From a virus: a stretch of DNA of 64,000 nt. Under the pieces are notes generated by a model, which was not told where the DNA came from, made no database searches, and saw only the letters and a list, made by a program, of their open reading frames with translations. Location of the stretch: positions 8,115-72,114 of the IMG/VR virus record IMGVR_UViG_3300020347_000003. One strand, written 5' to 3'. Below, one piece after another: positions 15,966 through 55,708 of the stretch. Both the position numbers and the translations under genes were made by a program. Position 1 is the first letter of the stretch; the number at the start of each line of letters is the position of its first letter.

Positions 15966-16049
15966 TGGTGGAGAGGGGTGGATTCGAACCACCGAAGCTT
16001 TCGCGTCAGATTTACAGTCTGATGGGTTTAACCACTCCCCAACCTCTCC
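15966..16049 (-). tRNA. tRNA-Tyr (GTA)
   Basis: GGAGAGG acceptor stem, TCAGA-CTGTAAA-TCTGA anticodon arm, long variable arm, GGTTCGAATCC T-arm, encoded CCA. Confidence 0.95.
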
Positions 16050-19151: not shown

Positions 19152-19905
19152 GATTAATCTCCGTGTTTATTCTTTGTCTCTTTCTAAGGTTTATCAGTTC
19201 TCTGACTTGTTTATCATCTCTCTGATCTGCCGAGGGCAGGAAGTTTGCCTTGAGGTTTACCATCGGGGTGTTGTCGTTAACTAGATAGTACATGGCCAGA
19301 CTATATCTGTCATTTTGACTCACGTTAGCTAACCCATGATAGCTGTTTTCGGAGTTTTCAAATATCATACAAGTATTATACTCTGGGTTTACTACCTTGT
19401 TGGGTTCTTCGCATGCCGATGCACGGTCTTTATCCCACAGCCCCAGTTGACCTCCATCGGTTATTTGCCAATCTTTGTTAAGATAGACCAGTACACTGAT
19501 TTTACGCCTGTATTTTAACTTAGGGTGGTGACTATAATCAATGTGTGGATTCAATTTACCACCCGGTGGGTAATAATGCAACCCACCACCATGAAGTCCC
19601 ACATCAGGTTCTAACCCAGGTATCTCTAAGGTTTCAATCAGATAATCCGTGAATACTCTACTCGTTAGATACGTAAAAGCCTGATATAACTTACTATCAA
19701 ATTTATCCCATATGTTCATAGTCTTTTTGTACTCTATGGGATTGTTATAATAGCCGTTCCACTTGTGAGAATTCGGCACAGGCAATTCATCGTGTAATTC
19801 CTGGCAGAAGTCAGAATCCCAAAAATTTTCCAAACATGCATGTGGAAAGGGATCTGCCTGCCAGAAATTGCTCAGATTTGACCTGTGCTTTTGGAGATCG
19901 ATCAT
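19141..19905 (-). CDS. 2OG-Fe(II) oxygenase
   Basis: PFPH, GGGLH, HxD (HID) ... H (SYHG) ... RxS. Confidence 0.9.
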   Translation of the reverse strand: MIDLQKHRSNLSNFWQADPFPHACLENFWDSDFCQELHDELPVPNSHKWNGYYNNPIEYKKTMNIWDKFDSKLYQAFTYLTSRVFTDYLIETLEIPGLEPDVGLHGGGLHYYPPGGKLNPHIDYSHHPKLKYRRKISVLVYLNKDWQITDGGQLGLWDKDRASACEEPNKVVNPEYNTCMIFENSENSYHGLANVSQNDRYSLAMYYLVNDNTPMVNLKANFLPSADQRDDKQVRELINLRKRQRINTEINHES

Positions 19906-20927
19906 ACCTCAAGCCATCTCGTATTCTCAAGTGTCCACTGTACGACTTCTTTAATACGATCTTCAACCGGCTGTGGTTCCCAACCCATCTGTTTCATTCT
20001 CTCACCACTCAATGCGTAGCGAAGATCATGCCCAGGTCGACTGCTGTGGAAGTCCATAAACTGGTAGTTCAATTCTTTGCCTTGTGCATCAGCAATCATT
20101 TGTGCAAGCTCGAGATTATTCAGCTCGGTAGCACCGCAGATGTTGAACTTCGGACACTTAATGCCATTGTTCTCTTCTGCGTTGAGTGTATGCTCATTCT
20201 GGAGCAAGAAAAGAGTAGCATCAGCAACGTCTTCAGCATGAATATAATGTCGTGACCCTGGTATTGTCTTTGTCTCGTCAGAGTGAATCGTGATCATATC
20301 ACCATCTCTGGCTCGACGAATACACAATGGAATAAACTTTTCGGGGTGTTGGCGTTGGCCAAATACGTTCATTGTATGCGTAATGTAGATAGGCATATTA
20401 TAGGTATTTTGATATGCAACTGCAAGTTCTTCACCACCAGCCTTCGATGCGCTGTAAGGATTCGTGCTGTTATACCTATCATATTCATCATACTTGACGC
20501 CATTTGGTGCTGGGCCAAATACCTCATCAGTAGAGAAGTACACAAATCTTTCTAGGTTTGGTTGCTTTCGAGCGAATTCAAGAATATTACAAGTACCGAC
20601 AACATTATCCATCACGAACTCCATAGGGTGATCGATACTGCGATCTACGTGAGATCCTGCTGCGAGGTGAGCAACGATTTCACACGGACCAATATCAGCA
20701 ACAATCTGAGGGTTCAGTTCTGCCTTGAGATCGTGAAAAATGGTTCGAACTCTTTTGCGTTCCTCTGCTGTACGATCTTGCAGAAGATCATGCAGACGGT
20801 TGAGATTACCACTATAATCTAAACGATCAATAGTGACCACATTCCAGTCTGTACGCATGAGTACTTGGTTGATTAGATGGTGGGCAATAAAACCACCGCC
20901 ACCGGTTATGAGAATTGTTTTAGCCAT
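19902..20927 (-). CDS. NAD-dependent nucleotide-sugar dehydratase (dTDP-glucose 4,6-dehydratase-like)
   Basis: TGGGGFI, SHVDRSI, STDEVFG, YSASK, RPGHDLRY. Confidence 0.92.
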   Translation of the reverse strand: MAKTILITGGGGFIAHHLINQVLMRTDWNVVTIDRLDYSGNLNRLHDLLQDRTAEERKRVRTIFHDLKAELNPQIVADIGPCEIVAHLAAGSHVDRSIDHPMEFVMDNVVGTCNILEFARKQPNLERFVYFSTDEVFGPAPNGVKYDEYDRYNSTNPYSASKAGGEELAVAYQNTYNMPIYITHTMNVFGQRQHPEKFIPLCIRRARDGDMITIHSDETKTIPGSRHYIHAEDVADATLFLLQNEHTLNAEENNGIKCPKFNICGATELNNLELAQMIADAQGKELNYQFMDFHSSRPGHDLRYALSGERMKQMGWEPQPVEDRIKEVVQWTLENTRWLEV

Positions 20928-20964
20928 TTCGATTCCTTCATCAAAAACATTATATTGATTTTAT

Positions 20965-21159
20965 TTATGTGTTGTCACCATCACGATATTCGATATCAGA
21001 CTTGTCAAAAGGCTTGATCCGGTTGCCATAATAATCGTGAGTACCTGCTCGGTAATTCCGCTTACGTTCATCTAGCATCAGAGTCGATTCCCAAATCATT
21101 GCTCCCAGAAAAACACAAACGGCAATTCCCAACACAAACTGTAATACGTCTAGTAACAT
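20965..21159 (-). CDS. Small membrane protein
   Basis: N-terminal TM helix. Confidence 0.6.
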   Translation of the reverse strand: MLLDVLQFVLGIAVCVFLGAMIWESTLMLDERKRNYRAGTHDYYGNRIKPFDKSDIEYRDGDNT

Positions 21160-21189
21160 AAGAAAGATCCTGTGATAAAATACCCTACC

Positions 21190-21218
21190 ATTCTATCACA
21201 AGATCCATATGATGTCAA
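21190..21218 (-). promoter_or_regulatory. sigma70-type promoter
   Basis: TTGACA-17 nt-TAGAAT. Confidence 0.7.
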
Positions 21219-21219
21219 C

Positions 21220-21711
21220 CTATTTTTTCTTTTTCTTTGCCATCAAAGCAACTGCTTTGTCGTAATCGGCTTGAGACACTACACCTTCCTTGAGCAATTT
21301 CTCACGGTTGGCTAGATGCGCTGTCTGTGTCTCTTCTTTTGAACCACCATAGTAAGGTACACAATGACCCTCGTCAGCCATAACTGCTGTCACTGCTCTC
21401 CAAGCATCATGTTTGGGATCATAGACATCAAAATCGCCTAAGACACGACCAAACTTACCCTTCATATCCTCACCATCTTTGGCGACCTGGGTCTTCAATA
21501 CACAAGTCTTGCCGAGCAAAGACTTAAGTCGATTCTTGGCTGCAAGACCAAAAACCTTTTCTACCTTATCACTTGTTCTTGATTCGGGTGTATCAATGCC
21601 CATGATGCGAACACGCTCATCAGACAGGACTATACCAAAACCAAGTTCAATATCTACATCAACAGTATCGCCGTCAACGACACGGTTAATCTTTGCTCTA
21701 TATTCGTACAT
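21220..21711 (-). CDS. Thermonuclease (SNase-like)
   Basis: RVVDGDTVD, RIMGIDTPE, GKFGRVLG. Confidence 0.9.
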   Translation of the reverse strand: MYEYRAKINRVVDGDTVDVDIELGFGIVLSDERVRIMGIDTPESRTSDKVEKVFGLAAKNRLKSLLGKTCVLKTQVAKDGEDMKGKFGRVLGDFDVYDPKHDAWRAVTAVMADEGHCVPYYGGSKEETQTAHLANREKLLKEGVVSQADYDKAVALMAKKKKK

Positions 21712-21733
21712 TGTGGTTCCCTTTTTTTTATTA

Positions 21734-21955
21734 TTAGAATATTTTACCTATTAGATAGACGAACCCCATTAGAAAGAACATACTAAGTGCAGATTCAAAA
21801 CCATCTAAAACCCATACAACTGGAAATCCCCCAAACCATACAGTCTTAAATGCATAGTCTTTCCAATTCCAAACGATGTAGAATAAACCTTCCCACGATC
21901 GCATGTTGTCTGGCCTTTCGGGACCAAAGTCAAGCTTTGGTTGTTTATCTCCCAT
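21734..21955 (-). CDS. Small membrane protein
   Basis: Hydrophobic C-terminal half. Confidence 0.6.
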   Translation of the reverse strand: MGDKQPKLDFGPERPDNMRSWEGLFYIVWNWKDYAFKTVWFGGFPVVWVLDGFESALSMFFLMGFVYLIGKIF

Positions 21956-21957
21956 AT

Positions 21958-22263
21958 TTATTCCCTTGGAAAGCCTTCTTGTACGAATACACCCATTGTA
22001 CCGATTTGACCATCAGTAAGCTGCATGGCTTGTGGCCACATCATCTGCGACTGGGGACCTACTATCTCACCATTCTTATAGAGTGTGAGCTTGGTGATGA
22101 TTTCATCAGCAGATTTGTCATAGAGAGAAGGGCCAATGCCACCCTCACCACGAGCTCCATGGCAAGCTGCACATGTATTCCACTGTTGACGAATTTCATA
22201 GAAACGATCTGCACTTGCGGGGAGTGCGAAAAGAATGCAAGTAAAAGCGATCAAATATTTCAT
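21958..22263 (-). CDS. Periplasmic monoheme c-type cytochrome (c553/c4-like)
   Basis: Signal peptide, CAACH heme-attachment motif, GPSL, distal Met in MMWPQA. Confidence 0.9.
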   Translation of the reverse strand: MKYLIAFTCILFALPASADRFYEIRQQWNTCAACHGARGEGGIGPSLYDKSADEIITKLTLYKNGEIVGPQSQMMWPQAMQLTDGQIGTMGVFVQEGFPRE

Positions 22264-22431
22264 AAAGGTTATCCTCATTTTGTATCATAATAAATGCATG
22301 TATATGTATGGCGATTATCAGTCTCACCACATACCATACAACGGTTTTGTTGCTCTTTGTAATCAAACTGCCGGTGGTGTTTATCTTCCCACACAGCGCG
22401 TTCGGTTAATTTCTTTTGATCTTCAGTTGTA

Positions 22432-23577
22432 TCAGTCATTTAAGTATTTCACGATTCTCTCGGCCAAATGTGCAAACCAAATCTCATCGCGTCCTCTTGT
22501 TGTCTCAGCGGCAGTGCCGATTCGTATACCAGATGTTTCCATAAATGGTCGGGGATCATTTGGTATTCCATTTTTGTTGACTGTAATCCTGCGACCCTCA
22601 AGTCTATCGGCCGCTTCTCTACCCGAATATTTGCTTTTACTCAAATCGAGTAGAATGATATGGCTGTCAGTACCACCTGTAAGAATATCAAAACCAGCTT
22701 CAGTAAAGATACCAGCCATGGCCTGAGCATTCTTAATTACCTGAGCTCCATATTTCTCAAAGTCGACAGTAGAAGCCTCAACAAAAGCTTGAGCCTTGGC
22801 AGCAATAATATTCATCAATGGACCACCCTGTGTACCAGGAAAGACAGAACTATTAATTCTTCTACTGTGTGCCTTATCGTTCCATAGGATAATGCCACCT
22901 CGTGGACCACGTAATGTCTTGTGTGTCGTACTGGTAACAACATCGGCATATTCAAGAGGGCTGTCGTATACACCAGCTGCAATCAAACCCGAATAGTGTG
23001 CCATATCAACCATCAGGAGGGCTCCGGCTTGATCAGCAATAAATCTAAATGCCTCCCAATCAATTTGCCGAGGGTATGCTGACGCACCAGCGATAATCAT
23101 TCTTGGTCTATAACTACATGCCAATTTCATAACTTCTTCGTAGTCGATATATCCATTTTCGTCCACACCATATGTCATGGCATCATAGATCTTACCGGAC
23201 ATATTGACTGGAGCCCCATGTGAGAGGTGACCACCAGATGCGAGATCCATACCTAAGATTCTATCACCGGGCGTTAAGAAAGCTTGAAAGACAGCACCGT
23301 TAGCATTTGCACCAGAGTGAGGTTGGACATTGGCAAATTCACAATCATAAAGAGATTTGAGCTGTTCGATTGCAAATGTTTCAATCTCGTCCATATGATC
23401 ACAGCCATTGTAATAACGCCGGCCTGGGTAGCCTTCAGCATATTTGTTTGTAAACACTGAGCCACATAGTGCCATTACCTCATCACTGGCAAAATTCTCA
23501 CTCGCGATTAACTCTATAGTAGTTTCTTGACGTTTCATTTCATTACGCCATATTAAATCAATCTCGGGGTGTAACAA
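22432..23577 (-). CDS. glyA: Serine hydroxymethyltransferase
   Basis: ELIASEN, NKYAEGYPG, GGHLSHG, TTHKTLRGPRGG (PLP lysine), SGIRIGT. Confidence 0.97.
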   Translation of the reverse strand: MLHPEIDLIWRNEMKRQETTIELIASENFASDEVMALCGSVFTNKYAEGYPGRRYYNGCDHMDEIETFAIEQLKSLYDCEFANVQPHSGANANGAVFQAFLTPGDRILGMDLASGGHLSHGAPVNMSGKIYDAMTYGVDENGYIDYEEVMKLACSYRPRMIIAGASAYPRQIDWEAFRFIADQAGALLMVDMAHYSGLIAAGVYDSPLEYADVVTSTTHKTLRGPRGGIILWNDKAHSRRINSSVFPGTQGGPLMNIIAAKAQAFVEASTVDFEKYGAQVIKNAQAMAGIFTEAGFDILTGGTDSHIILLDLSKSKYSGREAADRLEGRRITVNKNGIPNDPRPFMETSGIRIGTAAETTRGRDEIWFAHLAERIVKYLND

Positions 23578-23821
23578 GACTTGTGTCCTCCATCATTAAT
23601 TGTGTTTGAACCGCTGAGTAAAACTCTCTGTAGTGACCGATATATTTATCGTCCCACCATATGTGAGGTATCTTTTGCATGTCGACATGTTCTGAACGAA
23701 GTTGCCTGTAGTATTTGGACAGACCAATATCTTTATATTCGTACGGGATTCCGTACTTCTTTGCAAGACTTACTGCATCATGGCAGAATCCACACTGCGC
23801 TGTGCCGTAAATTGTGATCAT
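23558..23821 (-). CDS. Glutaredoxin
   Basis: CGFC motif, IPHI, YIG. Confidence 0.8.
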   Translation of the reverse strand: MITIYGTAQCGFCHDAVSLAKKYGIPYEYKDIGLSKYYRQLRSEHVDMQKIPHIWWDDKYIGHYREFYSAVQTQLMMEDTSLVTPRD

Positions 23822-24174
23822 GACTTAGGTTTCATTTCTTCCCAATTATCGATGAAGGCTAACTTCTTTTCTTCACCCCAACCATCTGGACCTTCGACGA
23901 GATATCTATTATCAGTGTCGAAAATATTTAGCATTGCCTCTCGGTCAACGAGTGTCATATCAACCACGTGCTGACCTAAAAATGACTGAGAGAATTCCTT
24001 GGCTTGTTCAGCCACGACACATTCTTCGAGCCACACTAATGCGGTCTCTTCGTCCAAGTCGTGATCTTTGTTTAGTTCTTGTAGTCTTTCAACTGGAATA
24101 ACATATCTTTGTCTGAAGGTAGACACTACCGTTGCGACTGCATACTTGCCTTCAATTTCACTTTTCATAATCAA
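23818..24174 (-). CDS. Hypothetical protein
   Basis: VSTFRQRYVI and KEFSQ motifs. Confidence 0.7.
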   Translation of the reverse strand: MIMKSEIEGKYAVATVVSTFRQRYVIPVERLQELNKDHDLDEETALVWLEECVVAEQAKEFSQSFLGQHVVDMTLVDREAMLNIFDTDNRYLVEGPDGWGEEKKLAFIDNWEEMKPKS

Positions 24175-24269
24175 ATCACCTTTTTTAAATGAATAATAAA
24201 CCTACAAAGAATCCTATATTTAGCCCTAATGAGCAGGCCAATATAAAATCCTTCGAAAAACTAGACTTC

Positions 24270-24437
24270 TCAAACGTTACTGCGTGGCTCTCGTCCACTA
24301 CCCTGTAATGTATTTTGCTGTTTTCCATCCGATTTGATTAATACCCTTGTTCTAATATCAGATCCAAAGTCTCGAGCATAAACCGTTTTACCACGGTCGG
24401 GTGACTCGTAGATTTTTGGTGCGTTCGTATCTTTCAT
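24270..24437 (-). CDS. Small hypothetical protein
   Basis: Manual translation containing KIYESPDRGKTVYAR; AGGAG SD. Confidence 0.55.
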   Translation of the reverse strand: MKDTNAPKIYESPDRGKTVYARDFGSDIRTRVLIKSDGKQQNTLQGSGREPRSNV

Positions 24438-24448
24438 TTCAACAACTC

Positions 24449-24703
24449 CTACATATTTTTGACATTATCTTGAATTCTTGCCCAGATATATTCTGCTTCT
24501 GGGAATTCGACCATCTCGTCCACTTGCATGTCGATATAGTCTAGCTCGTCTAAATTGGATGTGGTCACCTCTAGTTTCCACATGTCAATAATAGCCTGGC
24601 TAAATGCTGCGTTATTCAATGCTTGAGGTCCAAAAGCTCTCACGAGATCTTCCAGTGAATACTCACGTGGGGGCTGTTCATTTCTTCTATCCTTTTTGGC
24701 CAT
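24449..24703 (-). CDS. Hypothetical protein
   Basis: 84-aa ORF with GGAG SD. Confidence 0.6.
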   Translation of the reverse strand: MAKKDRRNEQPPREYSLEDLVRAFGPQALNNAAFSQAIIDMWKLEVTTSNLDELDYIDMQVDEMVEFPEAEYIWARIQDNVKNM

Positions 24704-25130
24704 GTGCAGTGTCTCCTTTCAACCAACCGATCTTTTCACCGGCTTTTACTCGACGATCATACTCTTCTACAGAACCTGGATATCTCCAAGCCCAAACAAG
24801 CCAGAAAAGCATGAATAAACCTATACTAATTGTAGCAACTAGCTTTAATTGTAAATAAAGAATCCAACTAAAACTGAATAGACAACAAGCCAACATGACA
24901 TATTTAGCTTTCGTTGGATAAATTCTTTTATTTGTCCAATTCTGTACATAAGGTCCAAATGTGGGATGTTCCCACACCCATTTTTCTAGTTTAGGTGAAC
25001 TTTTACTAAAACACCATAACGCAAGAAGTAGAAAAGAAGTGGTCGGAATGCCCGGTACGAGGGCTCCTATGTAAGCCATTCCCACCGATAACAGTCCTGC
25101 TGCTCTCCACAAATTTCTACGTATGTTCAT
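24687..25130 (-). CDS. ybaN: YbaN/DUF454 inner-membrane protein
   Basis: [26 protein letters not shown]...HPTFGPY. Confidence 0.88.
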
Positions 25131-26316
25131 TAAATACTCCCTTCAAAGCTGTGACCAAGTCATGCATCATGCCATCATCATGTAATGGTGTTGGTGTAAT
25201 TCTCAATCGTTCTGTTCCCACATCTACAGTGGGGTAATTTATTGGTTGAATGTATAATCCATATTTATTTAACAAAGTATCACTTATCGATTTACATTTC
25301 TTTGCATCACCCACCATTACGGGGACAATGTGTGTACATGCCGAATCGTGTACTTTCAATCCAGCATTTTTGATCATTCTTTTCAAAGTAGCAGCACGTT
25401 CTTGATGCTGTTCTCTTAGATTGTCATGATCTTTTAAATAACGTATTGACGCAATGGCTCCTGCACAAACGACAGGTGATGTTGAGGTGGTGAAGATGAA
25501 GCCGGACGCAACAGACCGAATTGCATCAAGAACATCACTATCACCAGCAATATACCCACCGTGGCAACCAAACGCCTTTCCAAGTGTTCCATTTATAATA
25601 TCTACCCTATCTTCCTCTATTCTCTCACAAAATCCAGCTCCTGTCAACCCATAAAGACCGACTGCGTGAACTTCATCAATATATGTGATAGCATTATACT
25701 CTTCTGCCAGATCACAAATTTCCTTAATCGGTGAGACGTCTCCATCCATACTGTATACCGACTCAAAGACGATGCAAGGTGTCTTACCTTCCATCTTGGC
25801 CCATTGTAAATAAAATCTCAGTTCACGTAGGTCATTATGTTGCCAGACTTTCTTATCGGCACCACTGTGTCGAATACCTTGAATCATGCTGGCATGATTT
25901 TTCGAATCACTCAGATAAACAAGATTGGGAATGATTTCTGCCAGAGCAACCAATGACCATTCATTGGCGACATAGGCTGATGTGAATAGAACGGCAGATT
26001 CTTTTTTATGTAATTCTGCCAATTCTTTTTCCAAAGTTACATGGAAATGAGATGTACCACCGATGTTACGTGTACCACCACTTCCAGCACCTGTCTTATC
26101 AAGAGCAGTATGCATGGCATCAATCACATATTGATTCTGACCCATACATAGATAATCATTTGAACACCAATTTACGATATTCTTTGGGGCGTATTTTCCA
26201 TACCAAGTAGCGTTAGGAAATTCACCCCTCGTTCTTACAATATCATTAAAGACTCGATACTTACCTTCGTCTTTTAATGTTTTAATTACATCATTAAACG
26301 GTGTCTTGTCGATCAT
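25117..26316 (-). CDS. hemA: 5-aminolevulinate synthase (Shemin/C4 pathway)
   Basis: [54 protein letters not shown] (PLP lysine), GFIFTT. Confidence 0.95.
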
Positions 26317-26674
26317 TAACTTTGTCCCAAATATTATCGGCAGTAAACCGATAAGCCCCAATACATTCATACCGAGTCCAATTCTCAATTAGGCTCAGCA
26401 TATATCCATTTTCTGCATTATACAGATAATATATATGCCCAACCTTTGGTACAAAATTGTATGTCGCACAATACACCATCTCTGTTTGTTTTGCTGCTTC
26501 TACCAACTCTTCATATTCACGATTGAGTTGATTCAGCCTTTCTTCAAAATATTTGCTGGCATTTGCTCCACGTTCTGTTTTGAAGAGGTCAGTGTCCGGC
26601 AACTGAATAGCCGGAGCACTGACATTCGAACCATAAGGTAGGAGCCCAGGGGCACTAGGCAGCGTATGCTTCAT
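26294..26674 (-). CDS. DUF2452-like protein
   Basis: [13 protein letters not shown] ... [12 protein letters not shown]. Confidence 0.7.
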
Positions 26675-27857
26675 CCCAATTACCCGATAAGCCAGCTACT
26701 TCATACTCTGTCACTCTGTTCTCAAAGAAGTTGGTATGGTCTGCACCATTCAGTACCCATTCGAGCCAAGAAAGTGGGTTGTCTTTTACCCTAAAGTTTG
26801 GTTTCATACCTAATTGAATCAATCGACGATCTGTGATATATCGAATGTATTGCTTGACCTCTGTCATTTCAAGGCCTTCAATTTGACCCATCTTATAGGC
26901 TAACTCGACAAATTTGTCTTCTAACTTAACCACCTGACGAGACATTTCATAAATCTCAGCCTTGAATTCATCGTCTACAATACGAGGATGTTCTTGGCAG
27001 AAGACCTTAAACAGTTTAGAGTTACCTTCTACGTGCATTGATTCATCACGGATAGACCATTCGACGACCTTACCCATCCCTTTCATCTTACCAAACCGTT
27101 GAAAGTTCAGCAACATTACGAATGATGCAAAGAGAGCAACACCTTCATTGAAGACAGATTTTGCAAGAGCGAGACCAAGACCACGCATGGTATTAACGTC
27201 TGCCTCCATCATGTATTCAATCTTATCAGCCATTTCTTTATACTCCAGAAACGCGTGATATTCTTCATTTGAAAGACCTAGTGTCTCATTCAAAAGAGCA
27301 TAAGCTCTCTGGTGAATACCTTCCCGAGCAGCAAACGATGAAAGCATATTGCGAACTTCGTTGTTCTTAAACTTGGGAATGAACTGATCAAAATAGTTTT
27401 GGCCAACAGCGACATCGCTTTGTGTAAAGAGACGAAGAATGTTGGTGATGTATTCCTTTTCGACATCGGTGATCTTACCACCTTTCCAGTCAGATACATC
27501 TTCAGAGAGGTCGAGCTCGTCTTCAATCCAATGGGCTTTTTCGTGTCGAGTAGTGATGTCAATGGCCCATGGGTAATGAAAAGGCTTATACGTCTCAGAA
27601 AACTCCATTAAACCACCGGATGATTTCTTAATCAAGGTATCAGCAATTTTCATTAAGTCATTATATGTTCCAATTTGCTTGTCGTCGATAAAGATTTGAG
27701 GTACCGACCGGACGTTTGGATATTTCTGGTAGAATGACATTCGTTGCTCTTCATCATCCAATTTAATTTCTGTAAAAGTAAAATTATGTAGTTTGAACCA
27801 TGCCTTTGCCTTATCACAAAACGGGCAAAATGATTTCGAGTAGATTACTACTTGCAT
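26655..27857 (-). CDS. nrdB: Class I ribonucleotide reductase beta subunit with N-terminal glutaredoxin domain
   Basis: CPFC/VPQIF Grx domain, then KPFHYPW, D..EGIH..Y, EG, RDESMH and NFFE. Confidence 0.95.
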   Translation of the reverse strand: MQVVIYSKSFCPFCDKAKAWFKLHNFTFTEIKLDDEEQRMSFYQKYPNVRSVPQIFIDDKQIGTYNDLMKIADTLIKKSSGGLMEFSETYKPFHYPWAIDITTRHEKAHWIEDELDLSEDVSDWKGGKITDVEKEYITNILRLFTQSDVAVGQNYFDQFIPKFKNNEVRNMLSSFAAREGIHQRAYALLNETLGLSNEEYHAFLEYKEMADKIEYMMEADVNTMRGLGLALAKSVFNEGVALFASFVMLLNFQRFGKMKGMGKVVEWSIRDESMHVEGNSKLFKVFCQEHPRIVDDEFKAEIYEMSRQVVKLEDKFVELAYKMGQIEGLEMTEVKQYIRYITDRRLIQLGMKPNFRVKDNPLSWLEWVLNGADHTNFFENRVTEYEVAGLSGNWDEAYAA

Positions 27858-27868
27858 TGGGGGAATCC

Positions 27869-28453
27869 TTATTGAGATAGTTTATAGTTTGTTTGTGAAT
27901 GATGCTTCTCGTCTTGTTGTACTCTATAGACCATGTCATAGAGCTTTGCATCAGATTTTAGATCATAATAATCAATTGCCAGTTGTGGGGCTGGACTGTT
28001 ATCTATATCACCATGAGCAATCATTTGGAGATAACTTTCATAACTACGTACTGCCTCTTCCTCAAAATAATGTACCATTAGGTGTGCTGTTTTGGGGAAG
28101 AAAATATAAAATATTAAATAATAATGCCAGAATATACATTGTGCCAAGAGAATCAAAGTTCTCTCAACCACATTGGGCTGTGCAATCTCAATAAAGAACA
28201 TGAGATGCATTCTTTCATTTTCGGCTTCGGCTAGAAGTTCTCTAATCTGAGGACCATATCCGGTCTTCAGACTACGAAGGCTGCGAAGGTGAATCCACAT
28301 ACCAGCGACCATCCCTGGCACACCGGCAATTGTTTCAAGCACTACAGCCCTGTGTCCGTATCTTTTGGCAAAGAACGTATCTGCAAAGAACCGAAAGAAT
28401 TTTGTTTGACCATAGGCAAATGAATGGCTCAGCCTCTCTCTTACCCCTGGCAT
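27869..28453 (-). CDS. aox: Alternative oxidase (ubiquinol oxidase)
   Basis: RAVVLETIAGVPGMV, EAENERMHL, YFEEEAV and DEKHH di-iron motifs; start codon uncertain. Confidence 0.93.
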   Translation of the reverse strand: MPGVRERLSHSFAYGQTKFFRFFADTFFAKRYGHRAVVLETIAGVPGMVAGMWIHLRSLRSLKTGYGPQIRELLAEAENERMHLMFFIEIAQPNVVERTLILLAQCIFWHYYLIFYIFFPKTAHLMVHYFEEEAVRSYESYLQMIAHGDIDNSPAPQLAIDYYDLKSDAKLYDMVYRVQQDEKHHSQTNYKLSQ

Positions 28454-30225
28454 GCCACACACTCGTCTTGATTATCTTCTTTGCCATTTACAAAACTACC
28501 AGGAGTCACCAGGTTGTCTAGCTTCTCTCGCTCAACCTTTTGTGAGACGTTTTCAGCCTTGTTTGATGATTCTGTGCGAAGATAATATAACCCCTTGCAG
28601 CCCTGTTTCCAAGCTTGATAATGTACCTTATGGAGATAACCTTTGTCGGCTCCAGCAGGGAAGAATATATTCAAAGATTGCCCTTGGCATAAATGTTCTT
28701 GTCGATCACCAGCCAATCGAATGAGCCACAACTGATCAAGTTCAATTGCCGTTTTAAATACATCTTTTACATGATCAGACAAGAAGCGCAAATGTTGTAC
28801 TGATCCACCATTCGTAATAATTGATGACCAGATTTCATCGGTATTCTGACCCAGACGATCTAGTTCTGCCTCTAGGTATGGGTTCTTGTTTAGATGTGAT
28901 CCCACACGAGTACGAGACGTGAATGCATTGGCTTTCCAAGGCTCGATGCTGGGTGATGTATCTACAATCATTGAAGAATTTGCATTCGGAGCAATTGCCA
29001 ACATATGTGCATTACGTCGACCCGTGCCTTTCATGTCTGGAGCCTCTCCTTTTTCTGCACCCATCTGCAGTGTAGCTTTTACGGCTCTTGTTTTCATCAA
29101 CGAAAAGATCTCGTCATTCTTTTCTACTGCTTCCTGTGAAGCGAATGGGATCATGTTCTTTTGAAAGTATGAGTGCAGACCCATAGCCCCAAGACCTAGT
29201 GATCTCTCACGCTGTGCACTGAATCGAGCTCGGTGAATTTCATCACCAGCATGATCAATGAAAAACTGCAGTACATTGTCAAGATAGACTATAAGGTCTT
29301 CGATCATTTGCGAATTTTTCCAATCGTCGTATCTCTCCACATTGACCGAAGATAGACAACACACAGCAGTACGATCTTCACTGGTCACGAGGTGAATTTC
29401 ATTACATAGATTAGAACCACGAATCTTCAGGCCGAGATCTTGTTGTGATTGCGGTAGCGCTCTATTTGCAGTATCGATAAAGTTTAGGTAAGGTTCACCT
29501 GTTCGATATCGAGTTTCTAATAGATGTTCCCACAATTTACGAGCCTTGGTTGTATCTCTCACTGAATCATCATCGGGATCAATCAAATCCCAATCAGCTC
29601 CGGCTTCAACAGCTTCCATGAACTTATCAGTTATATTCACAGCGTGATGTAGGTTGAGATTCTTACGATTCACATCACCAGTTGGAATTCTCATGTTTGC
29701 AAATTCAATGATGTCTGGATGGTCACAGTCGATATAGGCTGCATAAGATCCCTTTCGAGTTCTACCTTGACGATACGCAACCATATCTGCATCAACCGTA
29801 TGTAGAAATGGCATCGGACCAGGAGCCTTCTTTGATACTGCTCGAATATCAGACCAATGACCACCGACACCACCACCCTTGACCGACAGCCACCGAAGCT
29901 CGGCACTATGGTCAATCAGACCCTCTAGTGAATCTGGTACGTAAGTAAGAAAACACGAAATGGGTAACGCCTTTACAGGCTCACCTTCGATAGGAGCGTT
30001 TGAGAGAACTGGTGAAGCAAACATAAACCAACCTTTCGAAACGTAATCATAAATGCGTTGTGCAAGTTCTAAATCACCATAGGAATAAGCCACTGCCGCG
30101 CGTGCAAATGCTTGTTGTGGAGTCTTCTCGTCTTCACGGCAGTAATAATCTTTCAATAACTTTGCTGACTGCTCCGATAGCAGTCTATTTCTTCTATTAT
30201 CAATTCGGATACCTAGGTGATCCAT
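28441..30225 (-). CDS. nrdA: Class I ribonucleotide reductase alpha subunit
   Basis: PISCF, QGRTRKGS, SNLCNEI, APNA, GLYY and C-terminal CVAC. Confidence 0.97.
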   Translation of the reverse strand: MDHLGIRIDNRRNRLLSEQSAKLLKDYYCREDEKTPQQAFARAAVAYSYGDLELAQRIYDYVSKGWFMFASPVLSNAPIEGEPVKALPISCFLTYVPDSLEGLIDHSAELRWLSVKGGGVGGHWSDIRAVSKKAPGPMPFLHTVDADMVAYRQGRTRKGSYAAYIDCDHPDIIEFANMRIPTGDVNRKNLNLHHAVNITDKFMEAVEAGADWDLIDPDDDSVRDTTKARKLWEHLLETRYRTGEPYLNFIDTANRALPQSQQDLGLKIRGSNLCNEIHLVTSEDRTAVCCLSSVNVERYDDWKNSQMIEDLIVYLDNVLQFFIDHAGDEIHRARFSAQRERSLGLGAMGLHSYFQKNMIPFASQEAVEKNDEIFSLMKTRAVKATLQMGAEKGEAPDMKGTGRRNAHMLAIAPNANSSMIVDTSPSIEPWKANAFTSRTRVGSHLNKNPYLEAELDRLGQNTDEIWSSIITNGGSVQHLRFLSDHVKDVFKTAIELDQLWLIRLAGDRQEHLCQGQSLNIFFPAGADKGYLHKVHYQAWKQGCKGLYYLRTESSNKAENVSQKVEREKLDNLVTPGSFVNGKEDNQDECVACQG

Positions 30226-30234
30226 GTCTGCTCC

Positions 30235-30903
30235 TTATTCTGTTACGTATTCTTTCGCTAGTGGAAAGATTCGATAAATTGCGATTGCACAAGCCCGTGC
30301 AAGTTCCATATGTTCCTTTTGAGTACCATTATCACTACGTAATTCAATGTAGTGAATCCAAGATCGTATGGTACCATTGACATAGAGTCGAGACACTGTA
30401 AGGCCTTCAGGCAGTACTGATCTGGCCTGTTCTTTTGCGATCCCATTTTCTATTGCCCATTTATAGGCTAGTTTGGCTTCATGAATAATACTCAATTGTT
30501 TCATCTGCCAATCTTTTTTGAGTTCTGGGTCAGTGGTCGCGACACTATTTTGTCGATTTTTCTCATCTTGTAATCTTGCTTCACGGACTACAAAGTCAAG
30601 ATCCTCGGTGGGATCTGCATAACGCTGACTAAATTCTTGGAAACTAAAACTACGGTGTCGTAATAATTGTCGGGCTATATCACGTGTAGTTTCAATTTCA
30701 AAACATGCAGACGCCATTTCAAATGGTGACCAATGTTTGTGTTTTGCGAGATACCTAAGAAGTTTATCACTTGTTTCAGTATTCATCTGGTTGGTTGGGT
30801 TTGAAACCCTTGCACAGAATGCTATAAGATCCTGAATATTTTCAAGACCTTCCTGTTTCGTGGCTAGTGTAGGCTGGGAATAGCTGATCAACCTTGCTTT
30901 CAT
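30235..30903 (-). CDS. thyX: Flavin-dependent thymidylate synthase
   Basis: HWSPFE, RHRSFSFQEFSQRY, TQKEH. Confidence 0.97.
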   Translation of the reverse strand: MKARLISYSQPTLATKQEGLENIQDLIAFCARVSNPTNQMNTETSDKLLRYLAKHKHWSPFEMASACFEIETTRDIARQLLRHRSFSFQEFSQRYADPTEDLDFVVREARLQDEKNRQNSVATTDPELKKDWQMKQLSIIHEAKLAYKWAIENGIAKEQARSVLPEGLTVSRLYVNGTIRSWIHYIELRSDNGTQKEHMELARACAIAIYRIFPLAKEYVTE

Positions 30904-30906
30904 TAT

Positions 30907-31929
30907 CTAAGTCCTTCTCCATTGTTGTAATTTTAATTTGGCCTCAAGCCCGCTGTAAATGTTATTTTTAATAACACCTTGAACGTCACTGAAACCTGCC
31001 AATATCATCTCGTTTATATCCTTACCTGGCACATTATGTGGCCATATACAAATTTTATATCCCTGTCCTATAAGTTTTTCCATTCGTTTATGGATTTCCT
31101 TATTACGAGGTTCAGCATCAAAAACAAAGACAGCATTTTCTTTCGCATTTTTAAGGGCTGATGTTCCACCATCCGCACCGGCCATTGCCACGGAATTGCG
31201 TAGGAAAAAACTATCAATAGCACCCTCAACCACATAGTACTGTCTAGTAAAATCAACTGTGTCAAGGCCAAAGATCTTAGGTCGGTCATCGAACATAATA
31301 GTAAGATAACGCACTCCCTTGGGATCAAAGCCTCGGGCAGATACACCAAAGACATTGTTGTCTTTGTCTAAAAATGGTATTACCAATCGTGGTTCGTCTT
31401 TACCTACGTTTTCGAACTTATTTGGGATGATTGAGTTGATCCATCCTTTGAATTTTTGTGCGTAGTAAAGCCGATAGTGCTGATTCGGAGGAATCTGCCT
31501 CTGGTTTATATATCCCTTGACGGCGTGATCCCACTGGAGTTGACTAACTTTTTTAATTGCTTTTAAAGGGTTATTTTTCTTATTGAACTTCGGAGCAGCA
31601 GTTTTGAATTTGCTGTCGTCAGTGGTTGTCGTGATAGAGTTATTTGCCTTTTTGATGAACTTCTCAGCGACATAATCATTATACATCATCTGGTCTTGAC
31701 CCTTCAGAAAGAAAGGAAACGACATGCTGGCACCACAGTTGTGGCAATAGTAGAGAAGTCCATTGTCTTTTTCTAGGAGCCAACCTCGAGATTTGGAGCG
31801 AGACTTCTGCGAGTCTCCACAGATAGGACATCTGAAATTGATCTTGTACGGGTTGGTCGAACGGATCTTGAAATTTTCCAATCTCGCCGAAAGAAGCTGG
31901 GCATATTGGATATCAACAAAATCTAGCAT
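30907..31929 (-). CDS. DNA primase (T4 gp61)
   Basis: RCPICGDS / CHNC zinc finger, VEGAIDS, DxEPRN, KDIN TOPRIM motifs. Confidence 0.95.
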   Translation of the reverse strand: MLDFVDIQYAQLLSARLENFKIRSTNPYKINFRCPICGDSQKSRSKSRGWLLEKDNGLLYYCHNCGASMSFPFFLKGQDQMMYNDYVAEKFIKKANNSITTTTDDSKFKTAAPKFNKKNNPLKAIKKVSQLQWDHAVKGYINQRQIPPNQHYRLYYAQKFKGWINSIIPNKFENVGKDEPRLVIPFLDKDNNVFGVSARGFDPKGVRYLTIMFDDRPKIFGLDTVDFTRQYYVVEGAIDSFFLRNSVAMAGADGGTSALKNAKENAVFVFDAEPRNKEIHKRMEKLIGQGYKICIWPHNVPGKDINEMILAGFSDVQGVIKNNIYSGLEAKLKLQQWRRT

Positions 31930-31963: not shown

Positions 31964-31992
31964 ATTATAATACAAACTCATATGATTGTCAA
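31964..31992 (-). promoter_or_regulatory. sigma70-type promoter for the primase-thyX-nrd block
   Basis: TTGACA-17 nt-TATAAT. Confidence 0.8.
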
Positions 31993-39782: not shown

Positions 39783-41540
39783 CTATTTAACCTTAGCAGC
39801 AAGATCCTTATCTGCCTTGCCCCATGTTCCTTTAGATTTAGTAGCAAAACTATTTACTCTTGCAAGACCCCATTGAGTTGGAGTAGTGCCAGGTCTGTGA
39901 CCTGTTCTCCAAGCTGCAACACCCCGATCAAATACTTTCTTTAAAATTCCATAAGGCATTCCTGATTTTGCAGCCTTATCTTTTAATGCTTTTTCTGGGT
40001 TACTCTCAAAGATGAACTCGACAGATTCTGCAAGATCAAGTACCTCTGACATAATATCAAATTCTTCGGTCTTGGTTGCTACGAGTACCTTTTCGAATTC
40101 AGCCTGTTGCTTGAGCCACTTTTCTTTCCATGCCTTATAGACCTTAAAGCGATTATCGAATTTAACTCCGCCCTTTCCAGCCATTAGCATGTGTGGTCGC
40201 TTTTTTGGCATCATATCTCTCTTTGAAGCCTCCGTAACCTCATTGCGTTTGCTTTTCTGATATGACTTATATTCTTTACGTCTCTCTGCATCTGCTTTCT
40301 TCTCTGCAGGAGTCATCTGCGATACTGGTTTCTTGCGCTCTCCATACATATCCTTAAATCTCTTGGTATGCTTAGATGGTTTGGTTCCTTTTTCTCGAGC
40401 TTCTTTATCACCAGGTGCATCAGTGTATGCTGCCGGATTGTCATCATCTACCTTGGTCTTTCTTTTGAAATGTGCCTCACGATCGTCTTTCTTATCTTGT
40501 GCGACACCTGTGTAGTACTTAGAGGATTCTTCAACGTCAATTTTCTTTGACATTCTTTCTTTCTCAGCCGCTTTTACAGCAGGTAATTTCTTCTTGACCA
40601 TATTCTTAATTTTGGCACCAGAAATTTTCTTAATCTTTTTTTCGATTGCTTGTTTCTGAGATATGGAAAGATCAGCGTAATTCTTACCCTTTGCAAACTT
40701 ATCCTTTAGGGCCTTCTTTACCTGCTTTTCAGCACGACCTTTTAACTTCTCCTTTCCAGCCTTTTTCTTCATTGATCGAGCTCTTGCACGAGCAATCTTC
40801 TTGCCATGTTTCTTCATGACGATGGCTCTCTTTCGTCTTTGAGCCATATCCATAACCTCGTCTAAGGTCATTTCTTCGTTAATATCTTCATCGATACCCA
40901 TACCATTCCTCACTGCATCGAGTACTTGTTGTGCTTTAGATTGTAATCTTTTGGGAAGACCTTTCTTAAATGTATTAAGATCATTATCTGCCGCTAGAGC
41001 TCTCATTTTAGAGGCTGACATACCAGATACGTCATCGGCGTCTGGGTCTCGTTCTCCCGCAGAAATAACTTCTATTGAATCAAATGTGTAGTCTTTACCG
41101 TTATACTTATTTAAGAGTGTTTTAAACTCTCCCACACGATCTGAACCCACGACCAAGACCATATTCTTATATTGTCTTTGCAATTGAGCAGCAACTTGAA
41201 TAATGGTCTTTGCAGATGATTTTACAACGATTTTACCAAATGCTGCTTGAGCAAACTTGATCTTATCATCGTACGAAAGGGGGTTCTTTTTGGGATCTGA
41301 GGAATGCGAAAGATAGATTGCTGGGACAGCCTTTCTGGCTTTTGCCTCTGAGGCTACCTTAAGGGCTAATTTTTCATGCCCTGATGTTACGGGGTTCATT
41401 CTGCCCCACGATACTACAACAGTATCCGATTTGGCTGCCTCATCAAGTTCTGGTTTCGTGTTAATATACTTCGAACCACTTTTGATAGCATCAGCATCTT
41501 TCTTTTTGGACGATTTCTTTTTCTTAGCTTCCGGTTCCAT
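39783..41540 (-). CDS. HIGH-superfamily nucleotidyltransferase (cytidylyltransferase-like) with Lys-rich C-terminal extension
   Basis: GRMNPVTSGH, KNPL, VGSDRV, SAGERDPD, MSASKMR; C-terminal GHRPG..QWGLARVNSF domain; start set by the late promoter at 41581. Confidence 0.85.
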   Translation of the reverse strand: MEPEAKKKKSSKKKDADAIKSGSKYINTKPELDEAAKSDTVVVSWGRMNPVTSGHEKLALKVASEAKARKAVPAIYLSHSSDPKKNPLSYDDKIKFAQAAFGKIVVKSSAKTIIQVAAQLQRQYKNMVLVVGSDRVGEFKTLLNKYNGKDYTFDSIEVISAGERDPDADDVSGMSASKMRALAADNDLNTFKKGLPKRLQSKAQQVLDAVRNGMGIDEDINEEMTLDEVMDMAQRRKRAIVMKKHGKKIARARARSMKKKAGKEKLKGRAEKQVKKALKDKFAKGKNYADLSISQKQAIEKKIKKISGAKIKNMVKKKLPAVKAAEKERMSKKIDVEESSKYYTGVAQDKKDDREAHFKRKTKVDDDNPAAYTDAPGDKEAREKGTKPSKHTKRFKDMYGERKKPVSQMTPAEKKADAERRKEYKSYQKSKRNEVTEASKRDMMPKKRPHMLMAGKGGVKFDNRFKVYKAWKEKWLKQQAEFEKVLVATKTEEFDIMSEVLDLAESVEFIFESNPEKALKDKAAKSGMPYGILKKVFDRGVAAWRTGHRPGTTPTQWGLARVNSFATKSKGTWGKADKDLAAKVK

Positions 41541-41580
41541 CTTTCCCTTGGCCTTATTGTTTGAATAGAGGTAACTGTTA

Positions 41581-41588
41581 TATTTATA
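41581..41588 (-). promoter_or_regulatory. T4-type late promoter TATAAATA
   Basis: Exact octamer 41 nt upstream of the ATG at 41540. Confidence 0.7.
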
Positions 41589-41601
41589 ATAAAATGAGTC
41601 T

Positions 41602-42345
41602 TTATTTCGATTTTGTGGTGTTGACAGGGTGATGAGTTGCGCCATCTCCCTTATAGTTCTGTCCAAACGATTCAACCCACTTATAATTCATCACAGAAGA
41701 ACATTCCCATATCGTAGAGTCGCGGATCCAACCAATTGCAGCAGTGGGGTCCATGATTGCCATCGGTACCTGTGTGAAACCTTTCCTGCTACCAAGAAAG
41801 TACATATTATCAACAGCAGATACGACACCATGCATTTCGATTTCATCTAGCATATCTTTAGCTGCATGCCATGAGATGGCATATGCGTGTGCCCCCTCGT
41901 GTCCATGAATTCTTCGCAGATATCTTGGTGGTCCTGATTCCACGTGATCAAAGTTTTCAGGATCTGGAGCCTTATAACCAAGAACAATAATTTCACCATT
42001 GCGAATGGGTACTGGTCTTGGGTCATGCAACATAATTGCATCATGCTCAAGAATCACAGCTGTTTCTTTGTTATCACGAATTTTCTTCCATATCTTCGCG
42101 TGACCGGCAGTACAAAGTTGTGCTGCAGCTACCCAGGTGGTTCGATTAATATGTCTCTTTAGACCAATCGAATTCCATGCTGCATTAGGATCTACCTGAT
42201 AGAAACCTTCAAAGTATTCCCACGGTAATCCTACTTTATCGCAAGATTCTGCTGCAGTCTTTGCATAGGCATAAGATGTCTCAGTCGGTACCCTGAGAAT
42301 ATAAGCCTTGTCAATTGTACTTCTACCTCTATCTACGTCTGTCAT
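41602..42345 (-). CDS. Glycosyltransferase, GT25-like
   Basis: CxxGHxxIW, VILEHDA, GAHAYAI, VD. Confidence 0.75.
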   Translation of the reverse strand: MTDVDRGRSTIDKAYILRVPTETSYAYAKTAAESCDKVGLPWEYFEGFYQVDPNAAWNSIGLKRHINRTTWVAAAQLCTAGHAKIWKKIRDNKETAVILEHDAIMLHDPRPVPIRNGEIIVLGYKAPDPENFDHVESGPPRYLRRIHGHEGAHAYAISWHAAKDMLDEIEMHGVVSAVDNMYFLGSRKGFTQVPMAIMDPTAAIGWIRDSTIWECSSVMNYKWVESFGQNYKGDGATHHPVNTTKSK

Positions 42346-54354: not shown

Positions 54355-55059
54355 TTAGTCAACTGGATATGGCTTTAACTCTTCGAACAGTACATCATTC
54401 ACATATTGATTTATTTTATCTTCGTCCAGGTTCATTGCCCTGAGCGAATTCCACAGCTGTTTATTCTTCTTCTGATTGATGCAATAGTTATTGTGCCAAT
54501 GAATATGATCACCACCATTTGCCCAGAAGTTTTCGTGTTCAATCTGCTGGAGATAGTAGGCAATCAATTTTAATGCAACTTCACAAAACTGCTCTGTCTC
54601 TTCGCCCTCACGAACATTTCCTGCTGCAACCATATGAGGTGAAAATATCTCTTTGGCCCAGTCGGGTAACTCTCGTTCTTTCTTCCACACCAGATCTCTG
54701 GTAGCAAGACCAAAGGTAGTAATAATCGGATGTGTTTCATCGGACACGGGAGAAAAGTCAAAAAAGGAGCCACTGATCTTGTTAGGTCCTGCAACAACAT
54801 CTAGCCCCAAAATGGGGTAATGCATTAAATTGCTTGGGAAGATGTTAATGTGAATCAACCACAGTTTTGGTTTGCCTTCAATCGGCTCTATTATTTTTAG
54901 GTGTGCCTTACGAATAGGACCTGAGGTCCAAAACAGATCTGTCCAACCTTCAAACTCATTGATATGTCTTTCATTATCAAATCGGTCTAGGTGGCTATCG
55001 AAAAGGTTGATAATTTTGTCCGACAGCTCTCGTAACGTATTCAGTAGTGGTGTGTCCAT
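54355..55059 (-). CDS. Ferredoxin-dependent bilin reductase (PcyX/PcyA-like)
   Basis: RKAHL, HINIFP, PILGLDVVAG, FFDFSP, RELPDWAKEIFS, YCINQKKN; downstream of heme oxygenase. Confidence 0.88.
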   Translation of the reverse strand: MDTPLLNTLRELSDKIINLFDSHLDRFDNERHINEFEGWTDLFWTSGPIRKAHLKIIEPIEGKPKLWLIHINIFPSNLMHYPILGLDVVAGPNKISGSFFDFSPVSDETHPIITTFGLATRDLVWKKERELPDWAKEIFSPHMVAAGNVREGEETEQFCEVALKLIAYYLQQIEHENFWANGGDHIHWHNNYCINQKKNKQLWNSLRAMNLDEDKINQYVNDVLFEELKPYPVD

Positions 55060-55073: not shown

Positions 55074-55622
55074 TTAATCAGTTGTGGCGAAAAGTGTGTC
55101 CAACTCTTCAAATAATTTTGTTGCGTATTGAAAGCAAATAATTGCTTCGTCGACCATATCGTCATACAGTAACTCTCGAATACCAGAAATCAACTCTCGT
55201 CGATTCTCAAATTCATACATTGAACCCGAACCTGGTACTCTCTTTTTGATAATCTGACCACCGTGCATATCACCGAAGTGTCTGACATAAAGGTGAGCCA
55301 TTAGATCGTCATTATCTTCCAGATTTAAAATGTGATCAATGTATTCATCAACCGATCTTAAATTTTCAGAGATCCATGTAAGATTATAAGACTCTTCCAA
55401 TTCACACAAATCTGCCAAGATTTTCTCTGCTCTAAAAACACCGGTCAGTTCCTGTGCCAGATGAACACGCTCTTCAAGTACCCGGTATATTTCATATTGA
55501 GACTTCAAATAATACTGATATGCAACTGGAGTAATATCCCCACCAATCAGCATTCCGGCGAACCTTGATTGTTCGGCCATATCGTGGTGTTTCTGAGTTA
55601 GTTCTTTTAGACTAGTAGCCAT
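55074..55622 (-). CDS. Heme oxygenase
   Basis: LKELT..HHxxAE (proximal His), YVRHFGDMHGGQII; GAGGAG SD. Confidence 0.92.
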   Translation of the reverse strand: MATSLKELTQKHHDMAEQSRFAGMLIGGDITPVAYQYYLKSQYEIYRVLEERVHLAQELTGVFRAEKILADLCELEESYNLTWISENLRSVDEYIDHILNLEDNDDLMAHLYVRHFGDMHGGQIIKKRVPGSGSMYEFENRRELISGIRELLYDDMVDEAIICFQYATKLFEELDTLFATTD

Positions 55623-55708
55623 AGCTCCTCTCATAATTATTAGGGGGCCTTTTGGAAAGGGGGAAGACCATAACCCTGTAACGAGACTACGAGTGCCTCG
55701 AGTCAATT

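Follow-up and report, generated by a model that had tools for sequence, protein, structure and literature searches.

Wegner et al. (2024, Nat Commun 15:8783; PMC11480375) described a viral gene for 5-aminolevulinate synthase (ALAS), valaS, in phage contigs of marine and freshwater origin, which cluster with pelagimyophages. According to the main text of that article, valaS can stand by itself, join hemO and pcyA/X in a three-gene cassette, or belong to a broken cassette with valaS located elsewhere on the contig. The same text reports that the heme-feedback residues are missing in viral ALAS, demonstrates enzyme activity for one freshwater phage ALAS (CB_2) only, and proposes that valaS spares tRNA-Glu in hosts that use the C5 route. 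In this study, we analyzed 64,000 nucleotides of viral DNA (IMG/VR record IMGVR_UViG_3300020347_000003, positions 8,115 to 72,114; hereafter the window). The record that holds the window is a 72-kb virus with an estimated completeness of 41%. On the minus strand, positions 21958-30903 carry an ALAS gene in one run with genes for nucleotide metabolism, an alternative oxidase (AOX), a DUF454-family membrane protein, a serine hydroxymethyltransferase (SHMT) and a c-type cytochrome. The original prediction, made from the sequence, regarded this run as an undescribed and integrated heme-supply and respiratory module. We favor another reading, at a probability of about 0.7: the locus is the early nucleotide-metabolism run of an uncultured marine T4-like phage and a hot spot with separately gained auxiliary genes, not one inherited system. 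The only conserved partnership in it is that of valaS with DUF454, which almost always adjoins it.

The ALAS of the window is of the same type as that of the published pelagimyophage-like marine contigs. Its locus corresponds to the broken cassette of the main text of that article, as hemO and the bilin reductase gene lie together and ALAS lies about 29 kb away on the same contig. The presence of heme oxygenase and bilin reductase in this phage, which had been predicted, is real (PF01126 and PF05996). As in the published viral enzymes, the pyridoxal phosphate (PLP) lysine is present and the heme-feedback His and Cys are absent. The published activity concerns the CB_2 enzyme, whereas the ALAS of the window is known from its sequence. 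Since valaS with hemO and pcyA/X, the broken cassette and the idea of a C5 bypass all stand in that main text, the core of the original interpretation is already in print and the label "undescribed" does not hold for it. For a phage that makes a heme precursor, the window is a further example and not a discovery. The terms DUF454, hydroxymethyltransferase, glyA, alternative oxidase, PTOX, ribonucleotide, "membrane protein" and "neighbo" do not appear in the main text, and its sole "cytochrome c" is a host oxidase; the figures and supplement of the article may differ.

The run consists of 14 open reading frames (ORFs) in unbroken co-directional order. With the longest ORFs, nine of the 13 junctions overlap by 4-95 nt, and the remaining four are gaps of 9, 11, 11 and 95 nt. 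All named families in the run were intact in Pfam and NCBIfam profile searches, and both the tight packing of the run and the enzyme assignments made earlier were confirmed. T4-like helicase, UvsX, SSB and primase are encoded in the window, and replication genes flank the run on both sides. The nearest cultured phage was Methylophilales phage Melnitz EXVC044M (MZ577097), whose T4-like backbone matches that of the window in the order of primase, nrdA, a short ORF and a grx-nrdB fusion. The nrdB genes of the two phages are 74.8% identical in DNA, and a tRNA-Arg(TCT) gene is common to both. However, in the 25 kb examined, thyX is missing from the interval between primase and nrdA of Melnitz, and AOX, ALAS, DUF454, SHMT and cytochrome c are absent as well. 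A tblastn search of 50,697 GenBank phage records with these five proteins of the window found no Methylophilales or Pelagibacter phage. Both glutaredoxins, which had been counted as parts of the module, are partners of the reductase backbone and are also present in ALAS-free Melnitz and in most relatives. An RNA-library contig joins 27927 to 28441, that is, nrdA to nrdB without AOX. The large reductase subunit of Melnitz is annotated as vitamin B12-dependent; its homolog in the window fits a class I alpha model and adjoins NrdB, and the Melnitz label may be wrong.

These comparisons suggest a backbone of primase, nrdA, grx-nrdB, a few small ORFs, glutaredoxin and nuclease in a phage related to Melnitz. 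The gaps around nrdA and nrdB would be an insertion hot spot with a changing set of auxiliary metabolic genes. The genes that it may have acquired in this lineage are thyX, an AOX-type oxidase, DUF2452, valaS, SHMT and a periplasmic cytochrome c553. DUF454 would belong to the same hot spot, and lies downstream of nrdB in many ALAS-free phages. Most likely, every gene acts in a host pathway of its own. The analysis establishes the identities of the genes, their catalytic residues, their distribution and their contiguity; enzyme activities, co-transcription and metabolic coupling are inferred.

We investigated the distribution of the auxiliary genes in 99 ALAS loci, taken from IMG/VR and from phage-like contigs of bins (loci L001, L020, L021 and the bacterial L029 were left out), using profiles built from the window proteins. 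Locus scans covered the best 80 of more than 470 ALAS matches and the best 80 of more than 560 SHMT or cytochrome matches. Of the 42 ALAS loci that have nrdB immediately before ALAS and 5 kb or more of sequence after it, 16 contained SHMT, as did none of the 15 without a reductase nearby. Cytochrome c was found in 4 of the 99 loci, all with an ALAS at least 86% identical to that of the window. AOX was found in 14 (13 full-length), at three different positions: in the gap from nrdA to nrdB, immediately following ALAS, or on the opposite strand. When SHMT was used as the seed, ALAS and thyX were each present in 4 of the 50 loci with at least 4.5 kb upstream, and cytochrome-c-seeded loci held ALAS in 4 of 80 cases. 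The heme oxygenase and bilin reductase of the window had no match within 10 kb in any of the 99 ALAS loci when their own sequences were used (phmmer E 1e-5), a search that divergent copies, for example those of a three-gene cassette, could escape. Among five long ALAS records (29-77% complete), hemO was present in two, cytochrome c in one and SHMT in three. These results indicate that the genes proposed to form an integrated module do not co-occur beyond chance in related phages, as regards SHMT, cytochrome c, AOX and hemO/pcyX.

Several points weigh against separate gain. The order ALAS, SHMT, cytochrome c is kept in all close relatives (L002, L004, L005 and L017, with ALAS at least 86% identical) and also in independent assemblies, and this set may have been under selection within the close clade. 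Because the records are incomplete fragments, absence near ALAS is not absence from the genome, and several contigs hold SHMT or cytochrome c far from ALAS. The loci are phylogenetically non-independent, and the counts are uncorrected for relatedness. Cells themselves link hemA with glyA in 19 of 83 alphaproteobacterial genomes. In addition, the evidence for co-transcription of the run consists of promoter and terminator pattern matches.

The original prediction had raised the possibility that the PLP enzyme is an AONS/KBL paralog without ALAS activity. By sequence, the paralog was rejected. The protein passed the ALAS model (cut-off 338.55), while it scored 312.2 with the bioF model (cut-off 426.45) and 308.8 with the Kbl model (cut-off 460). 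It aligned end to end with the solved ALAS structures 7x98 and 2bwn, at 450 and 417 bits, and Kbl chains gave at most 199. The PLP lysine is retained in GTLGKAFG, which aligns with GTLAKAYG of 2bwn (R. capsulatus K248) and is invariant in eight phage sequences. Since the position of R. capsulatus His342 is occupied by Lys and the C-terminal Cys is absent, both heme-feedback residues are gone. Judged by these residues, the ALAS looks functional, and it would produce 5-aminolevulinate (ALA) free of heme feedback. Its start is probably near 26316, because relatives align from there. Phage-type ALAS was found in more than 470 viral stretches, and tblastn gave no ALAS-grade match in the 50,697 GenBank phage records. 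In cellular genome contigs, a single-protein scan gave one ALAS fragment, and an alignment scan gave nine loci, eight of them phage-like. Six contigs with phage-type ALAS-DUF454 were binned as Polynucleobacter, Vibrio, Neomarinimicrobiota, Crocinitomicaceae or Rhodobacteraceae. ALAS-DUF454 contigs in bacterial bins are probably viral contamination of those bins.

SHMT would convert serine to glycine, the substrate of ALAS, and provide methylene-tetrahydrofolate, the substrate of ThyX. As both consumers are encoded in the run, this arrangement would be biochemically neat. The protein of the window covers positions 6-397 of 399 of PF00464 and positions 2-379 of 404 of NF000586 (cut-off 335), so that its C-terminus is about 25 residues short. 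The stretch TTHKTLRGPRGG, which we take to hold the PLP lysine, is invariant in nine phage SHMTs. SHMT may serve mainly for thymidylate synthesis by regenerating methylene-tetrahydrofolate for ThyX, with glycine as a by-product, and we put this at a little under even odds. The biochemistry of the thymidylate cycle is established, and SHMT shares the dNTP gene run with thyX. SHMT was found in at least 565 viral stretches and, by tblastn, in Aeromonas T4-like phages among the GenBank phage records, where ALAS had no match of its own grade; 46 of the 50 SHMT-seeded loci had no ALAS nearby. However, thyX lay within 7 kb in just 4 of these 50 loci. Moreover, the two uses are not exclusive, since one reaction gives both products.

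Bacteria provide a parallel for the supply of glycine to ALAS. We counted hemA and glyA by hand over 301 alphaproteobacterial genomes, with 150 of 244 and 150 of 303 places listed. Both places were listed for 83 genomes; hemA lay at most 2 kb upstream of glyA on the same strand in 19 of these, and in four more the two were 5-8.5 kb apart. The frames were 45-450 bp apart in 8 of the 19, and most of the others had a DUF6898 ORF and a MucR-type regulator in between. Because synteny is partly shared, the 19 cases are not 19 independent events. In the window, ALAS also lies upstream of SHMT on the same strand, which fits glycine supply for ALA synthesis; the spacing is 45-1700 bp in the bacteria and 1.5 kb in the window, where five phage ORFs lie between the two genes. 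The closest cellular ALAS relatives found were alphaproteobacterial. The phage proteins are 54-60% (ALAS) and 53-57% (SHMT) identical to these bacterial proteins, which is no higher than the identity of SHMT to other bacteria, so these values do not point to capture of a bacterial hemA-glyA block. The role of SHMT as a glycine supplier in the original prediction has this cellular parallel. From a comparative standpoint, the frequent hemA-then-glyA order itself hints at a coupling of glycine supply to ALA synthesis in cells.

We next turn to the partner of valaS. DUF454 was found beside ALAS in 80 of the 99 ALAS loci, or 80 of the 83 that could be assessed: among the 19 loci without it, 16 stop less than 1.5 kb past ALAS, and three loci of one lineage truly lack it. 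After clustering of ALAS at 90% identity, DUF454 was present in 49 of 50 assessable clusters. Its distance downstream of ALAS was at most 100 bp in 36 loci and 100-3000 bp in 40; in the other four, it lay directly upstream. The link was seen in four genomic contexts, one of which is an isolated pair between opposite-strand genes in a second phage backbone. The window protein scored 67.7 with the E. coli YbaN equivalog NF007818 (cut-off 163); by sequence, it is a member of the DUF454 domain family and not a YbaN ortholog. Among the 301 alphaproteobacterial genomes, DUF454 was above the cut-off in 68 and ALAS in 224, and in none of the 56 with both places listed did the two lie within 8 kb (hand count). 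Since the closest pair in these 56 genomes is 8 kb apart, the pairing was not inherited from Alphaproteobacteria. The statement that YbaN often occurs in heme or iron loci was unsupported in 20 alphaproteobacterial DUF454 loci, in which no gene recurred among the neighbors (largest group, three loci). A literature search for DUF454/YbaN found nothing on these neighbors of valaS.

The link is one-sided. ALAS was present in 28 of 80 DUF454-seeded viral loci, and in 16 of the 31 with at least 3 kb on either side. In the 52 ALAS-free loci, DUF454 lay downstream of grx-nrdB in 40 and directly after a gene with a PAAR motif in 28. The ALAS label requires seven changes on a 90-row tree of DUF454, and well-supported branches force at least three of these. 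For these reasons, DUF454 is older and wider than valaS in these phages, and either valaS depends on DUF454 or valaS lands in a slot beside DUF454. The PAAR-motif protein has 363 amino acids (aa), and its gene (for example, L119:2955-4043) ends 4 bp into DUF454 in the 28 loci, downstream of grx-nrdB. It never adjoins ALAS; the lone match in ALAS loci is weak, with 29% identity, and lies 7.6 kb upstream (L040). In several other loci, ALAS-DUF454 is directly followed by an NAD-dependent dehydratase/epimerase gene that is also found in the window, as given below.

It is possible, although we lean against it, that valaS and DUF454 form a working pair, in which the membrane protein would handle the product or toxic by-products (export or import of ALA or porphyrin) or would hold ALAS at the membrane via a C-terminal tail. 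The near-constant company of DUF454 in ALAS loci and clusters argues for such a pair, as does its retention in spite of changing flanks and of DUF454 divergence down to 40% identity, even in the isolated two-gene unit. A pairing that is not alphaproteobacterial inheritance and a conserved, phage-specific C-terminal tail point the same way. However, only about half of the well-covered DUF454 loci hold ALAS, the ALAS label changes repeatedly on the DUF454 tree, and one ALAS lineage does without DUF454. The position downstream of nrdB in ALAS-free loci suggests that DUF454 may be a backbone gene beside an insertion slot. Neither conserved bacterial neighbors nor a fold match suggest a function: the predicted structure of DUF454 had a pLDDT of 86.7 and no match in the PDB at E of 0.001 or below (Foldseek). 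A prediction of the ALAS and DUF454 complex, run without controls, gave a score of 0.00, below the mark, which speaks neither for nor against the pair. The tail shared by phage DUF454 proteins extends beyond the Pfam domain (alignment A2), and the one alphaproteobacterial DUF454 protein inspected had an end without it.

The cytochrome has a CAACH motif and the Met of MMW, both invariant in 12 homologs, and its profile matches solved c552/c553/c554/c4 chains. Its N-terminal hydrophobic leader ends in ASA and is a putative signal peptide, as judged by eye. These features point to a small c553-like class I c-type cytochrome that is predicted to be periplasmic. As the homologs have 101 aa, its start is probably 22263. 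Its closest cellular relatives are in Halieaceae (44-54% identity) and SAR86 (40%). The c553-like cytochrome was found in at least 573 viral stretches of IMG/VR, and tblastn gave no match in the 50,697 GenBank phage records. In 37-39 of the best 80 loci (L363-L442), the genes ahead of it are DNA polymerase B, a small ORF and an overlapping glutaredoxin.

The motifs LET, NERMH, EEEA and DEKHH of AOX, the iron-binding Glu/His motifs, align with those of the solved mitochondrial-type AOX 9kun (also 3vv9), and by these motifs the enzyme looks functional, as the cytochrome does by its CAACH and Met. The sole GenBank phage record with a similar AOX was Phage C48C1 (OQ984149; 58% identity), where the gene lies between a tRNA-Thr gene and the clamp loader and is annotated as hypothetical. 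Cyanophages carry auxiliary genes for electron transport, including PTOX, plastocyanin and ferredoxin, and an alternative oxidase is reportedly present in cyanomyoviruses. The window resembles this set, in that a small redox carrier and a terminal quinol oxidase occur in a T4-like marine phage. It differs in its AOX, which matches structures of the mitochondrial type and for which tblastn found Phage C48C1 only and no cyanophage, and in its carrier, a predicted heme protein that would require the cytochrome c maturation system of the host. The cytochrome and AOX may feed or relieve the host respiratory chain. A literature search on a pelagiphage alternative oxidase found nothing, and searches on AOX as a phage auxiliary metabolic gene, on c-type cytochromes as auxiliary metabolic genes and on SHMT in pelagiphages found nothing on the neighbors described here. 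PHROGs has no family for the cytochrome, AOX, DUF454, DUF2452 or the small ORFs of the run, and the four small ORFs of the run have no family in Pfam either. Given that cultured phage records and PHROGs contain almost no such cytochrome or AOX, the respiratory auxiliary genes of heterotroph-infecting phages are under-described.

In the original prediction, the run was a selected, integrated module in which SHMT supplies glycine to ALAS, the host makes heme for cytochrome c, AOX reroutes electron flow, and hemO/pcyX drain the pathway. We consider this unlikely. In its favor, all parts are intact and closely packed in one direction, the nearest relatives and independent assemblies share the set, the ALAS is free of heme-feedback residues, and hemA-glyA linkage exists in cells. 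However, hundreds of viral stretches carry SHMT, and the same is true of cytochrome c and of AOX, in most cases with no ALAS close by; the relatives of ALAS, in turn, mostly lack the three in their vicinity. The window hemO/pcyX are unmatched around ALAS elsewhere, the genes do not travel together in the five long records, and the glutaredoxins belong to the reductase. It is similarly improbable that valaS needs a phage-type DUF454 as a membrane-bound ALA/porphyrin unit, with SHMT, cytochrome c553 and AOX stacked into the same early transcript. If this were true, a supply line from serine through glycine, ALA and heme to cytochrome would stand beside a heme-free overflow oxidase, and the phage would rebuild part of the host respiratory chain during infection.

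A fusion of host and phage DNA through misassembly or binning has a negligible chance. ALAS, SHMT, cytochrome c and AOX are genes typical of cells, and related contigs are binned under unrelated bacteria. However, the G+C of the window is uniform (0.38-0.44), phage replication genes lie on either side, ALAS of this type is found in more than 470 viral stretches, and bridging contigs from three other studies refute such a fusion. The contig of X2, from another study, has 7070 bases and covers 21589-28659 with 13 differing letters. The contig of X5 (4088 bases) covers 22055-26142, and that of X8 (13670 bases) covers 20000-29863 without ORF 21734-21955. This 73-aa ORF is skipped in the X5 and X8 contigs (joint 21748 to 21955). 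Because contigs from three other studies bridge its genes, the run is not an assembly artefact, and the host-phage chimera considered in the original prediction is ruled out. Half or more of the sampled words of a 6.5-kb core were held by 11 sequencing runs from five studies, all marine; runs X15-X20, with small word shares, were left out of this habitat assessment.

The features of the run and of its surroundings are listed in Table 1. A pattern search found no terminator-like site on the minus strand between the promoter match and the hairpin at 21165-21206. These pattern matches fit one possible transcription unit of about 10.8 kb, with a predicted start before the primase gene. The genes of the run are probably co-transcribed, and so could work together during infection. 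For X19, RNA-library contigs reach 90-95% likeness over parts of the run, and contigs cannot show transcription.

Table 1. Coordinates of the genes and transcription signals of the run, its flanks and the distant heme-degradation genes in the window.
Feature	Position	Strand	Evidence and occurrence
Sigma-70-like promoter match, TTGACA-17 nt-TATAAT, 12/12	31964..31992	-	before primase gene; consensus match only
DNA primase, backbone gene	30907..31929	-	phrog_47 259.7 bits; in most related loci
ThyX, flavin-dependent thymidylate synthase	30235..30903	-	TIGR02170 152.6 bits (cut-off 87.9); PF02511
NrdA, ribonucleotide reductase alpha	28441..30225	-	NF006577 781.7 bits (cut-off 620)
AOX, di-iron, variable insert between nrdA and nrdB	27869..28462	-	PF01786 214.2 bits; missing or placed differently in most relatives
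Glutaredoxin-NrdB fusion (beta subunit), backbone	26655..27857	-	NF009398 680.3 bits (cut-off 649)
DUF2452 protein, variable insert	26294..26674	-	PF10504 34.4 bits (cut-off 25); in some relatives only
ALAS (valaS)	25117..26316; longest ORF 25117-26388	-	TIGR01821 569.8 bits
DUF454/YbaN-family membrane protein	24687..25130	-	PF04304 110.6 bits (cut-off 35.1)
84-aa ORF	24449..24703	-	close relatives only; no Pfam/PHROGs family
55-aa ORF, conserved backbone	24270..24437	-	in most nrdB-context loci
118-aa ORF, conserved backbone	23818..24174	-	in most related loci, 37-84% identity
Glutaredoxin, backbone gene	23558..23821	-	PF00462 40.5 bits; in most relatives
SHMT	22432..23577	-	PF00464 479.7 bits; NF000586 551.2 bits; phrog_9968
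54-aa ORF accompanying SHMT in close relatives	22275..22439	-	
Small class I c-type cytochrome, c553-like (predicted)	21958..22278	-	PF00034 26.8 bits (cut-off 21.3)
73-aa ORF, variable	21734..21955	-	no relative in other loci
Staphylococcal-nuclease-like protein, backbone, ends run	21220..21711	-	PF00565 36 bits; in most relatives
Terminator-like hairpin then T's	21165..21206	-	after nuclease gene; pattern match only
Heme oxygenase	55074..55706	-	PF01126 67.2 bits; ~29 kb from ALAS
Ferredoxin-dependent bilin reductase, PcyX/PcyA type	54355..55059	-	PF05996 62.4 bits

Outside the run, the window carries sugar-nucleotide genes at 19902-20927 and 39783-41675, namely the NAD-dependent dehydratase/epimerase (PF16363, 168.9 bits) and a cytidyltransferase-like gene (phrog_3041). 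The tRNA genes of the window, tRNA-Tyr(GTA) and tRNA-Arg(TCT), are at 15966-16049 and 61433-61509.

Two aspects of this early nucleotide-metabolism run with its separately gained auxiliary genes are worth following. The first is the valaS-DUF454 link: valaS is almost never found without DUF454, yet DUF454 is often found without valaS, which provides a lead for a family of unknown function and suggests that the published enzyme was studied apart from its usual companion. The second is the wide and little-described occurrence of c553-type cytochromes, SHMT and AOX-type oxidases, all of them frequent among uncultured marine T4-like phages.

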